A DNA stretch of 64,000 bases from a virus: the IMG/VR virus record IMGVR_UViG_3300050821_009856, positions 1 to 64,000 of that record; one strand, written 5' to 3'. The position numbers and the translations under genes were made by a program. The notes below the pieces were generated by a model, which did not search any database, had not been told where the DNA came from, and worked only from the letters and a program-made list of their open reading frames with translations. Positions 7,608 through 44,595 of the stretch are shown in pieces (position 1 is the stretch's first letter; each line of letters begins with the position of its first letter).

Positions 7608-7626
7608 CGGAGATCCTCCGAGAAGA

Positions 7627-8727
7627 CTATAGCGAGATACCTCTCAGCCTCAGGAGCTTTCTCTCGATGATCGGCAACCCAGAGACAGCCTCCTGGAGCT
7701 TAAATGACATCTCGGCCTTCTCTACCCGGACATCAGGTCGGTTCTCCTCGGCATCCGGACACCGATCCAGGAAGTTGCCGCGATCCTCATCCTCCCCATG
7801 GGTCACAGGCGTAGAATCCGTAGGCCCCAGAGAAGAAGCCGCCGCCATCAGGTCGGAGATCTCCGAGGGATTCGTCCTGGCAGCAGACTCCACGAACCGA
7901 CCGCGGGCATCCTTGTTGACGCTATCGGCCAACTTCTGGAGGTCGATCACTTCGCCATGCTTCGCCAGGTACTTGTTGGCCCGATAGAGTTTCCTCTTGT
8001 CCTTCGGGTAGAAATGGATGCTGGTCTCACTGTAGGCCTCGATGAAGTTGCCGACCATGCGCTGGACGGCCATGGGTCGGAAGCGGCGGAACTCCCGCAA
8101 CAGAACCTCTGGAGCCTTGAACCTCTTCGGATCCGGGAGGACGAACTTGTCCGCTGCAGATACGAGGCCGTCGAGCCCGACCTGGACCAAATCCATGTAC
8201 GTCAGGTGCGTATGGGCCGCTCTGGCTGGGGCCAAGCTCCAGAACCGTCTGGCCTGGCTGATAGCTAAGGGCGTGTTCAGCACCACGATGTCCTGGCGTG
8301 CTGACTCGATTTGCCGAGACAAGCGAAGAAGTCTTGAACCGGGGCGCCAGCGGTAGAGCTTCATCGCCCAAGCAACGAAATTGTAGTTGAAGTGAAAGCC
8401 CTGGAGAACCTTCATGTCACCCGCGGCAAGGGCGTGACTGATGGGCCCGATACAGACGTCCTGTCGTTCCCGGAAGTAGGGTCGGCTGGTCAGGATGTTG
8501 CCGTTCTCTGTACAGATCTTCTTAAAGAAGGCCTTATAGACCCCCTTCCCCCAGGCATGCTTCAGGAGGACCTGTCGGAACTCCTCTTCCAGATTGTGGA
8601 CTGTCTCTAGCTGCTTCTTCTGAAGCTGCAGGAGCTGTCCGTCGTCGAGCTTGCCATACTTGGCAATGGCCGACTCCAATCGAGTGGCAAAAAGCCGAAA
8701 GTGTTCGTTGTCTACGTCGCCCATCAC
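7627..8727 (-). CDS. Sigma-70-family RNA polymerase sigma factor, C-terminally truncated (no region 4.2 HTH)
   Basis: Region 2-like NTPLAISQARRF, YMDLVQVGLDGLVSAADKF, FRPMAVQRMVG; ends at LSGLPIIERKLLRLRG-like region 4.1 (LQEAVSGLPIIERKLLRLRGISL*). Confidence 0.75.
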   Translation of the reverse strand: MMGDVDNEHFRLFATRLESAIAKYGKLDDGQLLQLQKKQLETVHNLEEEFRQVLLKHAWGKGVYKAFFKKICTENGNILTSRPYFRERQDVCIGPISHALAAGDMKVLQGFHFNYNFVAWAMKLYRWRPGSRLLRLSRQIESARQDIVVLNTPLAISQARRFWSLAPARAAHTHLTYMDLVQVGLDGLVSAADKFVLPDPKRFKAPEVLLREFRRFRPMAVQRMVGNFIEAYSETSIHFYPKDKRKLYRANKYLAKHGEVIDLQKLADSVNKDARGRFVESAARTNPSEISDLMAAASSLGPTDSTPVTHGEDEDRGNFLDRCPDAEENRPDVRVEKAEMSFKLQEAVSGLPIIERKLLRLRGISL

Positions 8728-11163: not shown

Positions 11164-11575
11164 GCCTATGACTATAGCGAGCGGATCTGGGGAGCGTAGC
11201 GACTGGCGCAGTTGTCTCAGGTTGGCAATCCTGGCAGTTCGGTGTAGCCAAGAGCATCGTCTTGTACGGATTGGCAGCGCTACCGTGTCCCGGTGTTTGC
11301 AATTTTGCTAGGGACCTCCGCGGTGGTTCAGAAGCGGCTTCGTAGAGATTTTCTAGCGGCTTCTCATGAGTCCCTGTAGCGGTCAATAATACATCCTGTA
11401 TTAGTCGCTATCGCTCCAAGAAAAATACTATAGTAATGCTAGCAGTTCATGCCAGCCCACCGCGGTGGCTCCCGCGGGGACTCAGAAGCGGCTCTATAGC
11501 GGCTATTGAGCGGACATCGAGCTTTTGGTGGGTCCATGTCCGCTCAAGGATTTTCTGACGCTATCGTTTCTTGGC
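11164..11575. other. Divergent intergenic region with short repeats and AT-rich core; candidate replication origin/regulatory hub
   Basis: CAGAAGCGGCT x2, TAGCGGCT x2, CCGCGGTGG x2 flanking an AT-rich core with AATACA-TCC-TGTATT and TACTATAGTA inverted repeats; strand-switch point. Confidence 0.4.
11171..11179 (-). promoter_or_regulatory. CGCTATAGT -10-type motif
   Basis: 7 nt before ATG 11163. Confidence 0.55.
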
Positions 11576-14359: not shown

Positions 14360-14368
14360 CGCTATACT
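14360..14368 (+). promoter_or_regulatory. CGCTATACT -10-type motif, leaderless sbcC
   Basis: 7 nt before ATG 14376, no SD. Confidence 0.55.
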
Positions 14369-16499: not shown

Positions 16500-16767
16500 C
16501 GTCCTCGATGTCATCTCGATAGCCAGAAAATTCTTCATCGAATTACCTGCCGCGGCTCAGTTGCCGCAGATGACGAGACGGCTTGATGAAGCAGAGCGCC
16601 GAGCCTTGGCTTTTTTTCAGGGTTCTCTGAACTTGATGAATCGCCGCGGCCTGCTCAGGTCTGACCTGAAGCCAGGCGATCTGGATCTAGAATACGAGAT
16701 CGCCGACAGTCAGGTTGTCTCTGCTGAGTACGAAACTGAAGCGTCGACCCCCGCCAAGTCGCTATAG
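16480..16767 (+). CDS. Hypothetical protein
   Basis: GTG 16480 with AAGGAGG RBS, in frame with track ORF 16384..16767. Confidence 0.6.
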   Translation: MQLKASDVLDVISIARKFFIELPAAAQLPQMTRRLDEAERRALAFFQGSLNLMNRRGLLRSDLKPGDLDLEYEIADSQVVSAEYETEASTPAKSL

Positions 16768-16787
16768 TAGGCGGCAAGGAGACTTCA

Positions 16788-20046: not shown

Positions 20047-20568
20047 TAGAACTCGAAGGAAAGAAGTTTGGTCGGTTGGTGGTCCTGAAATTCTTGGGTC
20101 GTAGTTACGGGACTCCGTGCTGGCTCTGTCGGTGTGAATGTGGCAAAACTAAATCGATAAAGTCCTCTCATTTGCTTGCTGGAGCCACAAAAAGTTGTGG
20201 CTGTTTGAATAGAGATGCAATCGCAGCCAGATGGATGCCGCATAGACAGAATACACTTTTTCGTTGCGTGATCCACGGATATAAAACGGGGGCAACGCGC
20301 AGGGGGGCTGGTGTGGGGACTTTCATTTGAAGATTGCTTTAAACTGATGTCCTCTCCGTGCCATTATTGTGGTGCGCCTCCATCGCAGAGTAGAAGTAAG
20401 TGGCCTGACATCTTCTACATGGGAATAGATCGTAAGGACAATGCTGAAGGGTACACAGCAGAAAATGTTTTGCCGTGTTGTGTTATTTGTAATAAGGCAA
20501 AGCTGACCATGCCCTATTCTGGGTTCAAGGAGTGGATCTCGAAGGTTTATCGGCATCTGGCGCTATAG
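20043..20568 (+). pseudogene. HNH-type homing endonuclease interrupted by +1 frameshift
   Basis: N-half GKKFGRLVVL, WLCRCECG, TKSCGC; C-half PCHYCG, GIDRKDN, ENVLPCCVICNKAK; deleting one G from the G6 run at 20302-20307 fuses them; AT-rich. Confidence 0.75.
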
Positions 20569-20569
20569 T
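20561..20569 (+). promoter_or_regulatory. CGCTATAGT -10-type motif
   Basis: 8 nt before ATG 20578, no SD. Confidence 0.55.
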
Positions 20570-23531: not shown

Positions 23532-23592
23532 TCTTCTCCTCCGTAGCATCCCAGTCTGCTGTCAACCCTTGCTGTCGTTATAGTCCAGCCTG

Positions 23593-36859: not shown

Positions 36860-37929
36860 CTGCAGATCCCGACAAGTTTCTGGTCCGGGGCGCCGGGCCA
36901 GAGGGAACCTACAACTTAGCGGTTGGAGAACCGGTCTTTCTCCGGAAGCATCTAGTGGTTCCTCAGAACCTCCTGGTCTCAAACATCGGGGGATCTGACT
37001 ACCCACCCTACAAGGGGCTCCCACGGCTCCTGGAGGAGCTTGGGTGGATGTACCCAGGCAAGCACGTGGTAGTGACGACCGGGGCCAAGCAAGCCCTCCT
37101 GGCGGCCTTCTATGCGTATCGGCAGCGCTTCGGGAAACAGGCCGTTTACCACGAGGCTCCGTGCTGGCCCTCTTACCCCACGTTGGCGAAGTTGTCGGGC
37201 CTGAGCTTTCAGTCGGATCGTATGTCCCTCCTCTGCTTGACGGATGAGTTCTTCGCTCGTCGATACATCAGCGTCAAGACGGCCCCTAACAATCCCGATG
37301 GACGTGTCGCAGACCGGTTGGATTTGAAGCACTACGACATCTGGGATGCGGCATATGCCCACCCAGTTTACGGATGGAATCCGGCAGATCTCCCGAGCCA
37401 TACTGTATCGGTCTGGTCTGCTGCCAAGTTGCTTGGGTTTAGTGGTGACCGAATCGGCTGGCTGGTGACTGGAGACAAGGAGCTAGCGGATCTCGCCGCA
37501 GACTACATCGAGAAGACGACTTCGGGGGTCAATACCAAGAGTCAGGCCATCATTGCAGCGGTACTCGGCTATATCAGGTGCTTTCCCGAAGAAGGTCGGA
37601 AGATGTACGAGGCTGCCCGCAACGATCTGCTGCACAACTTCATGCGGTTCATCCAAACGTTCGGGCCGAGCGTCAGGAATGCAAAAGACTACTCTGGAAT
37701 GTTCGGTTGGTTCGACCTGCCTTACGACGTGGGGGTCCGCCAGGAAGAGTTCGATGCCCTCCTTCGAGAGGCCAGGGTGATGCTGGTGCCGGCGTCAGCC
37801 TGCGGCGTTCTAGATAAGCCTGGCAGATATCGGATTTCTCTCGGCCACCGCGTGGAAGTGGTTGATGCGGCGCTACAATCCATCTCTGAAGCCCTTTGGA
37901 GGCGTCGTGGACCGCTATTCGGAACTTGA
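36856..37929 (+). CDS. PLP-dependent aminotransferase, fold type I (alliinase/TAA1-like features)
   Basis: NLAVGEP, TTGAKQAL, PNNPDG, DAAY, SAAK(PLP Lys)LLGFSGDRIGW, RIS. Confidence 0.85.
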   Translation: MTADPDKFLVRGAGPEGTYNLAVGEPVFLRKHLVVPQNLLVSNIGGSDYPPYKGLPRLLEELGWMYPGKHVVVTTGAKQALLAAFYAYRQRFGKQAVYHEAPCWPSYPTLAKLSGLSFQSDRMSLLCLTDEFFARRYISVKTAPNNPDGRVADRLDLKHYDIWDAAYAHPVYGWNPADLPSHTVSVWSAAKLLGFSGDRIGWLVTGDKELADLAADYIEKTTSGVNTKSQAIIAAVLGYIRCFPEEGRKMYEAARNDLLHNFMRFIQTFGPSVRNAKDYSGMFGWFDLPYDVGVRQEEFDALLREARVMLVPASACGVLDKPGRYRISLGHRVEVVDAALQSISEALWRRRGPLFGT

Positions 37930-38539
37930 AGCAAAGTACAGCGCAAACCAGTTGCCCTTCAGTCGCTTCCGAACTGAGATGGACAAGCTGACTTCACTGA
38001 AGCAGCCCCACGTTGTCGTCGGATGGGACACTTTCTACGCCAACCCGGAGACCGGCCTGGTTCTCAGATTCCGGCGAGCAAAGTCCGAGGGCAACGATCA
38101 CCCCGTCCTGACCTACAAGTACAGGAAGTCCGTTGGGGCCGACAGTGTCGATCGCCATGAGGTCGATTTGTTCTTGGAGAACAACGACAAGGTTGAAGAG
38201 GACACTGACGCCCTCTTGACAATGGCTCTGGGCTGCAAGAAGCATTTCTCCATTCTGAAGGAGAGCTGCATCTATCACATCGAGGGGGCGGGGCACACAG
38301 CCGTCATCGCCCTGTACGATGTCATGGTGCCGGGCAACAATTACGTAGAGCGCTTTCTTGAGGTAGAGATCGACAAGGATAGCCCATGTACGCCTGAAGA
38401 AGGCGCCGCAGCCTTGGCCGCATGGCAAGAGGCCGTTGAATCCCAGTTCGACCTCCAAAGGCCACTGGGCCAGTCGCTATATGAGCTACTGGGTCGTAAC
38501 TACGGAGATCCTGAACTTTTCATCAAGGGAACTTTCTGA
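37907..38539 (+). CDS. CYTH-domain protein (class IV adenylate cyclase / triphosphate tunnel metalloenzyme)
   Basis: ELEAKY (ExExK), DTFY, LRFRR, LTYK, RHEV, FLEVE; GTG 37907 with GGAGG RBS. Confidence 0.8.
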   Translation: MDRYSELEAKYSANQLPFSRFRTEMDKLTSLKQPHVVVGWDTFYANPETGLVLRFRRAKSEGNDHPVLTYKYRKSVGADSVDRHEVDLFLENNDKVEEDTDALLTMALGCKKHFSILKESCIYHIEGAGHTAVIALYDVMVPGNNYVERFLEVEIDKDSPCTPEEGAAALAAWQEAVESQFDLQRPLGQSLYELLGRNYGDPELFIKGTF

Positions 38540-38730
38540 TGCCACTCACCGAAGAGCAGTTTGCCGAGATCCTGGACGAAGTCATCGACGAGACTCTGGA
38601 CCTGAAGAAGCAGGACCGAGTCCGATTCAACAACGCCCTCCTGGAGCGGCTCGGGGAGGAAGATGTCTTCCCTGAAGAGGATGAGGACGAGGGTCTCACT
38701 GAAGAGCAGATCGATGCGGAGGAAGAGTGA
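38539..38730 (+). CDS. Small highly acidic protein
   Basis: 25 D/E versus 5 K/R in 63 aa; overlaps both neighbours. Confidence 0.7.
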   Translation: MPLTEEQFAEILDEVIDETLDLKKQDRVRFNNALLERLGEEDVFPEEDEDEGLTEEQIDAEEE

Positions 38731-39569
38731 TGAAGGCCCTAGTCTTGAGTGGTGGCGGATCTAAGGGGGCCTATGAGGCCGGCGTCGTCAAGTACCTCAT
38801 GGACTTCGAGGGCCGACGATATGACCTCTTTGCTGGAGTCAGTGTTGGGGCCCTGAACGCTGCCTTCTTGGCTCAGTACGGAGACGTTTCACCGCTTAGC
38901 GTCCATTCTCAGCAATACGCCGCCGAGGACTTGGTGAACCTCTGGAAGAGCCTCGACAACTCGAATGTCTTCAAGAATTGGTTTCCGCCCTATGTCTCTG
39001 CGCTCTGGAGGCCGTCGGTCTTCGATAGTTCGCCGCTCCAGAAGCTCGTCCGTAGCATCCTGAAGAAACCAGGCCCGAATAAGAAGCTCCGAGTTGGAGC
39101 GACTGGCCTGGACACGGGTACCTTCCGAGTCTTCGACGAGACCTACCCAGATGTCGCTACTGCGGTGCTCGCTAGTTCGGCATTCCCCGGCATGCTGCTG
39201 CCCGTGGAGATCGAGGGGCAGCTCTACACCGATGGCGGTGTCTGCAACAACACACCGCTCCGACAGGCCATCTCGGCAGGAGCCACGGAGATCGACGTTA
39301 TTCTTTGCTCGCCCTTGGACGACCCGTCCACGTCCTTCCAGGCCAAGACGACCGCAGTGAATGTTGGCTTCCGGGCCATCAGCCTCTTGACCGACCAGGT
39401 TCAGCGGGACAGCCTGGTCGACTGTATGGTCAATCGGACAGATCTGAAGATTCGGCTCATCAAGCCTTCGGCTGTGCTGACCAGTAATCCGTTGGACTTC
39501 TCCCCATCGCTGATTGCGTCGATGCTCAAGCAAGGCTATGCTGACGCCGAAAAGGGGCTATCCAAATGA
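38727..39569 (+). CDS. Patatin-like phospholipase
   Basis: GGGSKG, GVSVG (Ser), DGG (Asp). Confidence 0.9.
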   Translation: MMKALVLSGGGSKGAYEAGVVKYLMDFEGRRYDLFAGVSVGALNAAFLAQYGDVSPLSVHSQQYAAEDLVNLWKSLDNSNVFKNWFPPYVSALWRPSVFDSSPLQKLVRSILKKPGPNKKLRVGATGLDTGTFRVFDETYPDVATAVLASSAFPGMLLPVEIEGQLYTDGGVCNNTPLRQAISAGATEIDVILCSPLDDPSTSFQAKTTAVNVGFRAISLLTDQVQRDSLVDCMVNRTDLKIRLIKPSAVLTSNPLDFSPSLIASMLKQGYADAEKGLSK

Positions 39570-40189
39570 CCACCTGGTTTACCTCGGACCTTCATTTCAA
39601 CCACGTCAACATCATGCTGCCGTCGTACACGCGGCGGGAAGAGACGTTCCCAGACCTTCAGGCCATGAACGAGGGGCTGGTTCAGCGCTGGAACGAACGG
39701 GTCAAGCCAGATGACGACGTGTACCTCATTGGCGACTTGGCGATGGGGAAGAAGGCTGAGGCCTTGCCCTACCTGAATCGCCTCGTCGGCCACAAGCACC
39801 TCATCTTCGGAAACCACGACTACAAAGACCACAAGTGCACCGCCGTGCACCCGGCCATCCTTCAGGCCTATAAGGAGGGGGTGCTTGAGACCACCGTAGA
39901 GAGCCTACCGGTTCTTGAGAATGGGAAGCGACTCTTCCTCCACCATGAGCCCTGCTCGGTGCCAGAGACCTTCGACTATGTATTCTGCGGCCATGTTCAC
40001 GAGTCGTTCACCCGCGCTCGTTGGGATGCCGAGAGGCTGAACACCGAGACGGGCAAGCCCGGTGTTGCGGTCGCGGATCCAGATGGCAATATCATCAACG
40101 TCGGTGTGGACGTGAGCGACTACAAGCCGATGACGCTTGAAGAGCTTCTGGCTCGGCCTTTCTACGAGGGGCCGAAGCACAGGATCTAG
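39566..40189 (+). CDS. Calcineurin-like metallophosphoesterase
   Basis: SDLH, GD, GNHD, HEP, GHVH, NVGVD. Confidence 0.88.
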   Translation: MTTWFTSDLHFNHVNIMLPSYTRREETFPDLQAMNEGLVQRWNERVKPDDDVYLIGDLAMGKKAEALPYLNRLVGHKHLIFGNHDYKDHKCTAVHPAILQAYKEGVLETTVESLPVLENGKRLFLHHEPCSVPETFDYVFCGHVHESFTRARWDAERLNTETGKPGVAVADPDGNIINVGVDVSDYKPMTLEELLARPFYEGPKHRI

Positions 40190-40197
40190 AATGTTAT

Positions 40198-40271
40198 TCC
40201 AGGGTGCCAGAGTCTGGTAATGGGCGTGACTGTTAATCACGAAGCCGGTGGTTCGAATCCACCCCCTGGAG
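40198..40271 (+). tRNA. tRNA-Asn (GTT)
   Basis: Acceptor TCCAGGG/CCCTGGA, anticodon arm CGTGA-CTGTTAA-TCACG, T arm GGTGG-TTCGAAT-CCACC, discriminator G, no encoded CCA; TAGAAT -10 box at 40187-40192. Confidence 0.9.
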
Positions 40272-40693
40272 TTGTAAGGGATAATCCTAAGGCGGTTGGC
40301 GAGCGGTCAGAAGCAGCCATTCTGGCTGAACTTTTATTTCGTGGTTACACCGTATTGACCCCATTTGGGGATAACCAACGATACGACTTGGTCGTCGACT
40401 TGAGGACGAAGTTCCTTAAAATCCAATGTAAGACCGGTAGGATTAAGGCGGGGGCAATCATATTCCCCACCTCTTCGTCTCAGGCTCATCGTGGCAAGGG
40501 GCGCCAGAGTTATCGAGGACAGATCGATCTCTTTGCTGTTTATTGTCCAGAAAATCGCCGGGTATACGTGGTTCCCGTAGACGATGTCGGCACTTGCGAG
40601 GGATCACTTCGAATCGAGGCTACAAAGAATAATCAGACGATCGGATGTCGAATGGCCGCTGACTATGATCTGCAGTCGCTGGTGTTAGTCTAA
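40220..40693 (+). CDS. PD-(D/E)XK homing endonuclease (I-Ssp6803I / group I intron-associated type)
   Basis: GERSE, PFGDNQRYDLVVD, KIQCKT, YRGQIDLFAVYCP; AT-rich; start lies inside the tRNA. Confidence 0.8.
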   Translation: MGVTVNHEAGGSNPPPGVVRDNPKAVGERSEAAILAELLFRGYTVLTPFGDNQRYDLVVDLRTKFLKIQCKTGRIKAGAIIFPTSSSQAHRGKGRQSYRGQIDLFAVYCPENRRVYVVPVDDVGTCEGSLRIEATKNNQTIGCRMAADYDLQSLVLV

Positions 40694-41343
40694 TGCCAGC
40701 AACACTTCACACCGAGGCGATGGCTTGGCTTAGATACGGCAAGCACATGCCACTTGTCTGCACCGAGGCGGGCTACTGGAGTGCGGATGTCCTTGGCATC
40801 GATGACACCAAATGTGTGGAAGTAGAAATCAAAAAGAGCATAGCAGATCTCCGAGCCGACTTCAGGCGGAAAACAAGGAAGCACGAGACATACGCTAACC
40901 TGAAAGCCGACGGTCGAGCCATTTGGTCGCCGAACTACTTCTGGATCTTCGTGCCTGCCAGTATTGGTCGTCAGGCTCTTACTGTCTTGGACGAACTCGA
41001 CGCCAAGCACGCTGGCCTTGCCGTCTTGGAGGCAGAGACGACGCGTCCAGGCCACGCCGGTCGCTGGGTGACCATCCTCCGGCGAGCGCCGCGGCTGCAC
41101 GGCAACAAGCCCCATCCCAAGCTTGTTCGGGCGATCCAGCTTCGAATGGGCTCAGAACTGACGACGCTACGGTTGAACCTGGAGCTGCTCAAGCATGCCA
41201 AGCCAGAACAAGTAGACGCTATCGTCCAGAGTGCGTTGGAGATCTCGAAGTCATTAGTCGAGACTCAGGACTGGGAGAAAGACAGTGAATGCGGACAAGA
41301 AGCTTCTGAGACTGCTGGGCCAAGCCCTGATGCTCCTCGATAG
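40693..41343 (+). CDS. MmcB-like PD-(D/E)XK nuclease
   Basis: ADVLG, EVEIKKSIADLRADF, PNYFWIFVP. Confidence 0.65.
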   Translation: MPATLHTEAMAWLRYGKHMPLVCTEAGYWSADVLGIDDTKCVEVEIKKSIADLRADFRRKTRKHETYANLKADGRAIWSPNYFWIFVPASIGRQALTVLDELDAKHAGLAVLEAETTRPGHAGRWVTILRRAPRLHGNKPHPKLVRAIQLRMGSELTTLRLNLELLKHAKPEQVDAIVQSALEISKSLVETQDWEKDSECGQEASETAGPSPDAPR

Positions 41344-41440
41344 TGTTAACTCGGCGGCAACTCAATATGAATATGATTTGCTCATCGTGGCTCGGAGGAT
41401 GGTGGAAGACCGAGTCTACTCTCACGAGACGAATCGATGA
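41285..41440 (+). CDS. Small hypothetical protein (51 aa)
   Basis: Manual: GTG with GGAG RBS, MNADKKLLRLLG..., stop overlaps next ATG. Confidence 0.45.
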   Translation: MNADKKLLRLLGQALMLLDSVNSAATQYEYDLLIVARRMVEDRVYSHETNR

Positions 41441-41676
41441 AGAAGCTCCAGTTGGCCAAAATGAGCCTGGGCCAGGGCCAGTACCGCGGCAAGGTGAGCC
41501 TCGTCAGCGACTCCTGTGAGCCAGGGACCCTGGAGGATCGTCTGTTCCGACTCGACCTACTGCAAGCCGTTGCCAACGACCCGCAGCTTCAATCCGTAGC
41601 CGGCAAGGACTTCCAGACCATGAAGATGTACTTTGCCGGTGGCCAGTGGCAAATCGACCTGGAGGCGGACCTCTGA
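41437..41676 (+). CDS. Hypothetical protein
   Basis: Coupled overlaps at both ends. Confidence 0.6.
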   Translation: MKKLQLAKMSLGQGQYRGKVSLVSDSCEPGTLEDRLFRLDLLQAVANDPQLQSVAGKDFQTMKMYFAGGQWQIDLEADL

Positions 41677-41960
41677 TGTGCCCGATCTGCGCCAAGAAGC
41701 CGGCCAGCCGCTCCACTGTTTTCTGTGACGACCACTTGAAAGTCTGGGTGGGCAGCCCGGAACGGTATGCCGTCGATTGGGCCTCCGAGGACAGCTATGA
41801 AGCGGAGCAAGCACAGTTCGTGGATCGGGTGCGGAAAGAGATGGGGCCAGGCATTTTCGTGGGTTCAGCCCTGACCTTCCTCCCGATTGAAATTGTAGTA
41901 CCAACCGGTAGCGACAGCCTTCCGGTAACCAGATCAGACTCGGGCCAAACGAATGTCTGA
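41676..41960 (+). CDS. Hypothetical protein with N-terminal CPIC..C..H zinc motif
   Basis: ATG 41676 with GGAGG RBS. Confidence 0.55.
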   Translation: MCPICAKKPASRSTVFCDDHLKVWVGSPERYAVDWASEDSYEAEQAQFVDRVRKEMGPGIFVGSALTFLPIEIVVPTGSDSLPVTRSDSGQTNV

Positions 41961-42225
41961 CCAGCTGTCACCTTTCTCTGGATGCACCCTCAACAAGGCT
42001 TGGCTGGACTCCGAGATTCGCCAGGAGGTCGCTGACGCCATCGTCCGCCTCAATGGCGCGGCTGCTCGATGGGCCAGGGCCACGCCCCAGAACTACTGGG
42101 AGGCAGAGCAAGAGTTCCTGAAGTTCTGGATCGACCTGGAGGGTGTCATGATTGGCTTCACCGATACCTACGTGCCGCCTGAGCCCCCTAGCCCTGCTCC
42201 TTGGCCGCGTCCACTTTCAGCTTGA
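41953..42225 (+). CDS. Hypothetical protein
   Basis: Operon continuity. Confidence 0.55.
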   Translation: MSDQLSPFSGCTLNKAWLDSEIRQEVADAIVRLNGAAARWARATPQNYWEAEQEFLKFWIDLEGVMIGFTDTYVPPEPPSPAPWPRPLSA

Positions 42226-44127: not shown

Positions 44128-44576
44128 GCGAGCCACGGTGGTTTGAAGAGCTTCAAGCAGAGGTCAGCGGCATTCGCATCCGCTGTGGGTACCACGGCCT
44201 GGACCGCAGCTGCGTCTACAACAGCAGGATGCAGGTACACTTTCAGCCCGTGGTTGAGATGCCCGCTTGGGTCACCGAGTACCTGGAAAACATCATAATC
44301 CCACTCCATCGAAATTGGCCCGCGACCGACCACATAATGGCTGCCCTGGCCTGTCAGGTTGCCCAAGAGATGGCGAGACTTGAGCACGCGGGCGCGATTT
44401 ACAGGACGGATGGTGGTGGCTGGAATGATCCTCGTTGGTCTGGGAATCACAAGGACCGATGGGCCAAACCGAATCGTACGGCCGAGCTTGAGCAGAGCCT
44501 GAAGCTCGTTGAGGCTCAGCGAGACGCCAATGCCGCCCGCGTTAAAAATCTCGAAGCGAGATTCGAGAAGCTATAG
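44124..44576 (+). CDS. Hypothetical protein with shared C-terminal coiled-coil tag
   Basis: C-terminal 30 aa shared with 13717..14073. Confidence 0.6.
   Translation: MSEPRWFEELQAEVSGIRIRCGYHGLDRSCVYNSRMQVHFQPVVEMPAWVTEYLENIIIPLHRNWPATDHIMAALACQVAQEMARLEHAGAIYRTDGGGWNDPRWSGNHKDRWAKPNRTAELEQSLKLVEAQRDANAARVKNLEARFEKL
44481..44570 (+). repeat. Dispersed 90-bp coding repeat, copy 2
   Basis: Matches 13981..14070. Confidence 0.9.
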
Positions 44577-44595
44577 TTCTGCCAAGGAGAAGCAC

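Follow-up and report, generated by a model that had tools for sequence, protein, structure and literature searches.

How does a gene begin when the only canonical start codons ahead of its conserved part lie inside a tRNA gene? The question is raised by a stretch of 64,000 nucleotides (nt) of viral DNA, referred to here as the window, which is part of the 86-kilobase (kb) IMG/VR viral record IMGVR_UViG_3300050821_009856, estimated to be ~53% complete. A transfer RNA (tRNA) gene for asparagine, tRNA-Asn (anticodon GUU), occupies positions 40198–40271 of the plus strand, and the reading frame of a homing-type nuclease passes through it and ends at 40693. An earlier reading of the same DNA, made from the sequence only, had proposed that the nuclease starts within the tRNA as a designed form of control. 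On balance we favour a plainer account, in which this copy of the nuclease has lost its own initiation codon and is either silent or translated at trace level, while the start codons within the tRNA are incidental and the tRNA itself remains functional.

The nuclease frame, the tRNA and their junction

The whole open frame (40190–40693, plus strand) begins directly behind the TAG of a phosphoesterase gene and extends to the nuclease TAA at 40691–40693, and is thus open back to that upstream stop, as the sequence-only reading had stated. Its conserved part, a body of the PDDEXK_5 or I-Ssp6803I type, consists of 136 codons plus the TAA (40283–40693, plus strand). When read from 40220 (157 amino acids, aa), the frame matches Pfam PF11645 (PDDEXK_5) with 128.6 bits against a cut-off of 26.1, the match spanning residues 22–151, from nt 40283, and profile positions 2–137 of 138. 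I-Ssp6803I itself (PDB code 2OST) is matched by sequence with E=1.2e-8, and an AlphaFold model based on a 60-sequence alignment (predicted local distance difference test, pLDDT, 89.6; predicted template-modelling score, pTM, 0.80) has 2OST chains as its top four Foldseek matches (E 3e-9, TM 0.67–0.70). Asp56, Gln69, and Lys71 are invariant in the 60-sequence alignment and align to the YD...QvK residues of 2OST, and the N-terminal K-x-x-G-E-x-S-E helix is kept, with Gly27, Glu28, Ser30, and Glu31 in place. Every family-invariant residue of the body is retained, and there is neither a frameshift nor an internal stop. Judged by these sequence and fold matches, the frame is a PD-(D/E)XK nuclease of the homing type and of the I-Ssp6803I family, as had been recognised before.

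The G+C content is 0.50–0.52 over 40100–40900 compared with 0.57–0.60 in the flanks, and this dip of 7–9 points is confined to the nuclease open reading frame (ORF), which argues for a foreign origin of the nuclease. Homologues have a scattered occurrence in phages, haloarchaea, and bacteria of many phyla. Foreign composition is thus found together with a patchy distribution beside a conserved target gene, and the nuclease appears to be a horizontally acquired, free-standing homing-endonuclease gene. The ORF is not carried by a group I intron interrupting a tRNA anticodon loop: no match to a group I intron or to any other Rfam family reached E<=1 within 39000–42000, the tRNA-Asn is uninterrupted, and the same search does detect introns beside other members of the family. 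The absence of an intron had been noted earlier from inspection of the letters.

Both ARAGORN (40197–40272) and Rfam RF00005 (40198–40271) identify the tRNA as tRNA-Asn, the latter at full length with 63 bits against a 29-bit cut-off. It has a perfect 7-base-pair acceptor stem, a standard T-arm, and a discriminator G (40271); CCA is not encoded. The region folds as a cloverleaf in the minimum-energy structure, and the tRNA is apparently functional. A scan of the whole 86-kb record with ARAGORN returned this tRNA only. Downstream of the nuclease, no stump of a second tRNA-Asn copy is present, the best local alignment score of 16 being at noise level.

A typical tRNA-Asn contains two TAG triplets, one at U8-A9-G10 and the other in the D-loop GGTAG. 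The nuclease frame avoids both, and since no other frame does so, this frame of tRNA-Asn is open by default. An overlap of the nuclease frame with the tRNA is therefore not improbable in itself. With TTG counted as well, the only in-frame starts from 40190 to the conserved helix are the ATG at 40220 and the GTG at 40226 (together 40220–40228, plus strand), which lie in the D-loop and anticodon-stem part of the tRNA, exactly as the sequence-only reading had it. The ATG corresponds to the AAUGG of the D-loop, and some in-frame ATG, GTG, or TTG is present in nearly every related tRNA-Asn, at differing positions. Initiation at 40220 would place 17.3 codons inside the tRNA and add an extension of 20 residues that is modelled as coil with pLDDT 65–67. 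The computed pairing with the anti-Shine-Dalgarno sequence amounts to −3.9 kcal/mol at 40220 and −3.2 kcal/mol at 40226, compared with medians of −5.6 for the phage genes and −3.1 for the background; about a third of the phage genes pair as weakly as the starts in the tRNA, and several of these look leaderless.

Between the discriminator G and the first conserved nuclease codon lies a junction of 11 nt (40272–40282, plus strand), the same spacer length as in the homologous loci L015 and L028. It reads G-TT-GTA-AGG-GAT-AAT when the discriminator and the first conserved codon are included, and in the junction alignment the GTA at 40274–40276 occupies the position of the start codon of the relatives. 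In the homologous locus L053 a gapless codon match is found, with ATG AGG TCG GAC CCG AAG opposite GTA AGG GAT AAT CCT AAG in the window. The nearest relatives, L053 and the proteins P0003–P0005 (59–60% identical), begin M-R-[ST]-D-P-K, collinear with V-R-D-N-P-K in the window. Because of the common spacing and this codon-for-codon correspondence, the GTA is the positional homologue of the family start, and it could have arisen from ATG by way of GTG. No other canonical start is present past the tRNA. Two other proposals for the junction were set aside. An 8-mer shared by the window and L053, TTGTAAGG, occurs in 16/187 loci and is attributable to chance, and a derivation of the window from L034 by a 72-nt deletion carrying the starts was replaced by the gapless codon match to L053, P0003–P0005, and L015.

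Relatives and the tie of the family to tRNA genes

Loci of homologues (16 viral, 80 metagenomic, and 80 genomic) were collected and analysed by script. A tRNA lies within 130 nt of the nuclease in 126/177 loci, and the clades of the protein tree track both the identity of this tRNA (Thr-UGU, Thr-GGU, Lys-UUU, Ala-GGC, and Asn-GUU) and the side on which it lies. The window belongs to a clade of 17 rows (support of 89 in the Shimodaira–Hasegawa-like approximate likelihood-ratio test, SH-aLRT) whose members are mostly attached to tRNA-Asn, on either side; the clades come from a quick tree, which does not settle whether the window and L028 are sisters.

In nine unique loci, the window included, a tRNA-Asn lies immediately upstream of the nuclease (within 91 nt), and the nuclease is in the same frame in 9/9 of them, reading ACU-GUU-AAU through the anticodon loop. 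This shared frame follows from a start that is fixed just past the tRNA, combined with the coding constraint on the spacer. In L015, L108, and L109 (Roseisolibacter and a related metagenome-assembled genome, MAG), the junction is composed of the discriminator G, CT, and ATG, and the same G-CT-ATG follows the annotated tRNA-Asn of HSTV-4, a cultured archaeal virus. L033 has a GTG at the same position past the tRNA, the GTG of L037 begins with the discriminator itself, and the ATG of L041 lies 3 nt past it. The relatives that follow a tRNA-Asn thus start 0–3 nt past the discriminator, whereas the start-like codons within their tRNAs differ in position and kind and are not conserved among relatives of the same architecture. 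L034 also has GTA at the homologous codon, but ordinary ATGs are found further downstream, and L028 has the near-cognate AAG there.

Throughout the family the start nearest to the conserved N codon is at a median distance of 5 codons, compared with 19 in the window. No canonical start was found in 4/157 unique loci, namely the window, L028/L029, and the intron-borne L114 and L122. The only start in L028/L029 is an ATG that straddles the 5′ end of the tRNA. N-termini that derive from tRNA are also seen in P0010, P0014, P0025, and P0030, as judged from called proteins only, and N-terminal extensions of up to ~25–28 codons occur among the relatives.

These comparisons suggest how the arrangement may work where it is intact. 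In one clade, the nuclease gene seems to settle flush with tRNA-Asn(GUU) genes, whether the carrier is a phage, a soil bacterium, or an archaeal virus. In the relatives behind the tRNA, the nuclease starts three bases past the discriminator (G73-CU-AUG) and would for that reason be made as part of the tRNA transcript, co-transcribed with tRNA-Asn. Trimming of the tRNA 3′ end past the discriminator would then free a near-leaderless messenger RNA (mRNA) with its AUG 2 nt from the 5′ end. In the phage studied here, the codon that should serve as the start reads GTA, and the ATG and GTG upstream would be no more than incidental products of a stop-free tRNA-Asn frame and of the D-loop AAUGG that supplies an ATG.

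Nucleases on the other side of a tRNA share nucleotides with it as well. At 44 unique loci the tRNA comes second, and the TAG of its nt 8–10 serves as the stop of the nuclease. Such overlaps of PDDEXK_5 genes with tRNAs, which the sequence-only reading had suggested looking for in other phages, were thus found in the 44 metagenomic and genomic loci and also in the phages My1 and phi-pp2. Examples are L005 (3393–3402), L006, L007, L014, L032, L044, and L110, where the downstream tRNAs are Asn-GUU, Thr-UGU, and Thr-GGU, and in these loci the last two to three nuclease codons are encoded by the acceptor stem. Cutting by RNase P at such loci would leave a message that lacks a stop.

A separate clade from Burkholderiaceae, Streptomycetaceae, and other MAGs carries a group I intron core (57–67 bits) directly after the ORF, which is the classical intron-borne form; these loci are L112, L114, L115, L118, L122, L123, L133, and L134, with the core at ~1920–2200. 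Fragments of tRNAs border the nuclease in L005 (2920–2990 and 3466–3510), L011 (2150–2227 and 2693–2735), L006 (2945–2995), and L053 (1440–1500 and 1942–2010). The pieces in L005 and L011 are the 5′ half and the 3′ half of another tRNA, and bracket the unit of nuclease and tRNA-Asn; the tRNA-Asn downstream in L053 is broken in its 3′ acceptor strand. These flanking pieces look like the result of a cassette of nuclease and tRNA having been inserted into resident tRNA genes. In the L017 record, a complete phage of 113,606 base pairs (terminal repeats, 100% complete), and in its relative L018, the tRNA-Asn linked to the nuclease is the only tRNA. That the phages of the window record, L017, and L018 each have this sole tRNA fits a joint movement of nuclease and tRNA.

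Loss of the start codon weighed against translation

For this copy of the gene the ordinary answer, a start codon that has been lost, is likely. The normal start codon being mutated, the start within the tRNA is probably a by-product with no designed control behind it. The relatives initiate at a codon past the tRNA, the window has GTA at that codon, and the codons within the tRNA are unconserved, so the proposal of the sequence-only reading that the tRNA-borne start is a regulatory device is not supported. That reading had named the outcome that would speak against it, namely a protein that is never made or that initiates at a non-canonical codon downstream of the tRNA. This scenario has become the more likely one, but it falls short of proof since two of the nine loci that follow a tRNA-Asn are start-less yet intact. 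If the copy is silent, its state would be an early step in the decay of a homing endonuclease, or else a tolerated down-tuning.

Several observations weigh against a simple loss. The body of 136 codons is fully intact, with all invariant residues kept, unlike what is expected of long-standing decay. Start-less copies are enriched behind tRNA-Asn, with 2/9 (the window and L028/L029) compared with 2/148 elsewhere (Fisher p=0.017, with small numbers), and the protein P0010 suggests a third such case; this enrichment could mean that a start of its own is dispensable to a nuclease beside a tRNA. Furthermore, the nuclease stop overlaps the start of the next gene as TAATG, which is a usual sign of translational coupling to an upstream frame that is translated. 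Because of the enrichment, the intact bodies, the TAATG, and the 44 loci with a shared stop, translation from the precursor or trace initiation at a non-canonical codon retains a place beside the lost start.

The nuclease might still be made by translation from the ATG at 40220 or the GTG at 40226 on an unfolded, uncut precursor, so that each transcript serves either as tRNA or as nuclease mRNA and a toxic enzyme is kept low; ribosomes that end at the phosphoesterase TAG might then unfold the acceptor stem and start again 31 nt downstream. We consider this unlikely, even though several observations speak for it. The two codons are the only canonical in-frame starts in a frame that is open through the whole tRNA, the body behind them is intact, and an extension of this kind, modelled in the window as a floppy tail, is within the range that the relatives tolerate. 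Added to this are the frame common to all nine loci behind a tRNA-Asn, the similar dependence of L028/L029 on an ATG that straddles the tRNA 5′ end, the equivalent either/or choice at the opposite end of the gene in the 44 loci with their stop inside a tRNA, and the position of tRNA and nuclease within a long plus-strand block that has no recognisable promoter motif from 23577 to 44570. However, the position of the start is not conserved among relatives and is explained by the constraints on tRNA sequence, the shared frame is accounted for by a start just past the tRNA and by a spacer that is constrained as coding sequence, the pairing ahead of the two codons hardly differs from background, and both codons belong to the D-arm and the anticodon stem of a tRNA that folds strongly, while the GTA as a mutated family start points to loss. 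A bolder version, in which nucleases are welded to tRNA edges on purpose and their production competes with tRNA maturation, is speculative and in our view doubtful. Upstream copies would then borrow their stop from tRNA nt 8–10, as at the 44 loci, so that an RNase P cut yields a stop-less message targeted by transfer-messenger RNA (tmRNA); downstream copies would start at or in the 3′ part of the tRNA, and the window and L028/L029 would be translatable only from the uncut precursor. If true, this would amount to an intron-free invasion of tRNA loci, with a toxic enzyme held at trace level and tied to the state of tRNA processing.

Initiation could also have stayed just past the tRNA at a non-canonical codon, either the GUA at 40274 or the AGG at 40277, which lies ~5–8 nt after the acceptor GGAG, on the trailer or on the precursor, with a trace yield of enzyme that is sufficient. 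The GTA is at the exact ancestral start position, L034 has GTA and L028 the near-cognate AAG there, and the acceptor 3′ strand with the discriminator (CTGGAG) provides −5.9 kcal/mol of anti-Shine-Dalgarno pairing for starts at 40274–40280, as good as in the median phage gene; the phage also appears to use leaderless starts. Nevertheless, this route is improbable. To our knowledge, neither GUA nor AGG is accepted as a start codon in bacteria (NCBI table 11), a cut of the RNase Z type would produce a trailer that begins UUG-UAA, a start followed by a stop in another frame, and the parallel with L034 is weakened by the ordinary ATGs that it has further downstream. A shorter product of 112 aa from the TTG at 40355 (40355–40693, plus strand) corresponds to a gene call in a public protein collection (P0002), and is very improbable as the real protein. 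It is without helix 23–40, which carries the invariant G-E-x-S-E, and without the opening strand of the PD-(D/E)XK core, Shine-Dalgarno pairing at the TTG is −2.2 kcal/mol and thus weaker than background, and the position is used as a start by no relative. Read-through of the phosphoesterase TAG, which the sequence-only reading had considered as a source of a fusion of phosphoesterase, tRNA-encoded linker, and nuclease, is hardly credible. The two frames are the same with one TAG between them, but a shared frame has a chance of one in three, TAG is an ordinary stop that ends 16/54 long ORFs of the record, the 86 kb hold no suppressor tRNA, and such a fusion is seen in no relative.

Known systems, neighbouring genes and the DNA record

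I-Ssp6803I (PF11645; encoded in a group I intron of Synechocystis tRNA-fMet) shares with the window nuclease the family, the fold (28% identity at the TM values given above), the D...QxK motif, and the tie to a tRNA. Unlike I-Ssp6803I, the window gene is intron-less and free-standing, lies directly behind an intact tRNA-Asn, at its 3′ end, and is without a start codon of its own; the intron-borne relatives from Burkholderiaceae and Streptomycetaceae MAG loci belong to a clade other than that of the window. SegB of phage T4 is likewise an intron-less nuclease gene in a phage tRNA region, a free-standing homing endonuclease of the T4 tRNA cluster that is believed to spread through cleavage, in related phages, of tRNA regions without the nuclease (PMC2330249). 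SegB differs from the window nuclease in that it has a GIY-YIG fold and translation signals of its own, and shares no nucleotides with a tRNA. A closer counterpart is gp71 of Halorubrum sodomense tailed virus 4 (HSTV-4, MZ334501.1), with HRTV and HJTV relatives, a PD-(D/E)XK nuclease that follows a tRNA-Asn(GTT) with the junction G-CT-ATG. In contrast to the window gene, its carrier is a virus of archaea and its ATG is preserved, and the proteins are ~35% identical over two thirds of the length. My1_056 of Pectobacterium phage My1 and pp2_314 of Vibrio phage phi-pp2 (KVP40 group) are PDDEXK_5 proteins in phage tRNA arrays whose annotated coding sequences overlap a tRNA; here it is the 3′ end of each gene that runs into the tRNA (tRNA-Ile and tRNA-Met), not the start as in the window, and the identity is 31–36%.

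The I-Ssp6803I family has been described as intron-encoded (PMC3943268), and a survey noted its patchy distribution (PMC3424549). Our literature searches found the family described only as intron-encoded, with no account of the tRNA-abutting, intron-less arrangement. The window locus and its ~175 relatives thus represent a second, intron-less lifestyle of I-Ssp6803I-type nucleases, which share their stop, or nearly their start, with a tRNA, and the G-CT-ATG junction is common to bacteria, phages, and an archaeal virus. The arrangement raises the question of whether tRNA trimming frees a leaderless message for expression or the uncut precursor is translated, and whether nuclease and tRNA-Asn travel together. 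It also holds a warning for annotation, since gene callers truncate such genes, as in the 112-aa call, or extend them through the tRNA.

DNA nearly identical to the window is present in soil metagenomes, and no RNA run was found to contain the stretch. Positions 40116–40306 show 0 differences across contigs from four soil-metagenome runs of three studies (2018–2025), all of them DNA contigs, and because these agree without difference the junction of tRNA and nuclease is real DNA and no assembly artefact. The four metagenomes all carry the identical allele, and no close relatives that would inform on presence or absence at the site were found through the flanking genes: searches with the phosphoesterase gene, the downstream 216-aa gene, and DNA similarity gave only matches of <=36% identity, without synteny.

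The calcineurin-like phosphoesterase gene (39566–40189, plus strand, assigned by Pfam) has its TAG (40187–40189) 8 nt ahead of the tRNA and in the same frame as the nuclease. It is the last gene of a tight block at 37862–40189 that encodes, by Pfam, a CYTH-domain protein, a 63-aa acidic protein, a patatin-like phospholipase, and the phosphoesterase. No sigma-70-like promoter above chance is present near the tRNA. The motif GYTATAST, found 7 times compared with 1.8 expected (7626–7633 and 11171–11178 on the minus strand; 14361–14368, 16761–16768, 20562–20569, 23577–23584, and 44570–44577), ends 7–8 nt ahead of the ATG in the genes checked (11163 on the minus strand; 14376, 20578, and 23593), and is probably a phage promoter −10 box that drives leaderless transcripts. 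Since no copy occurs between 23577 and 44570, the tRNA and the nuclease seem to sit within a long plus-strand unit that has to be cut to free the tRNA. A terminator-like 9-base-pair hairpin followed by AACTTTTATTT (40304–40338) was rejected as a signal, such sites being not above chance (18 compared with 16 expected; hairpin z = −0.78). It lies within the codons of the first nuclease helix, ~35 nt past the tRNA, and could cut short tRNA transcripts.

Downstream of the nuclease, a gene of 216 aa (40693–41343, plus strand) begins with the ATG that overlaps the nuclease stop. NCBIfam gave no match for either the nuclease or this neighbour, whose sole match is phrog_2776, of unknown function. The N-terminal part of its product has a D...E-x-K pattern (ADVLGIDD...VEVEIKK) that resembles another PD-(D/E)XK nuclease. 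In other phages, the tRNA arrays beside nucleases of the family (L005, 3952–4392; L016, 3935–4267; L012, 1395–1710; L013, 5402–5685) contain GOLLD RNA (154 bits), bacterial-type RNase P RNA (155 bits), tmRNA, and permuted tmRNA.

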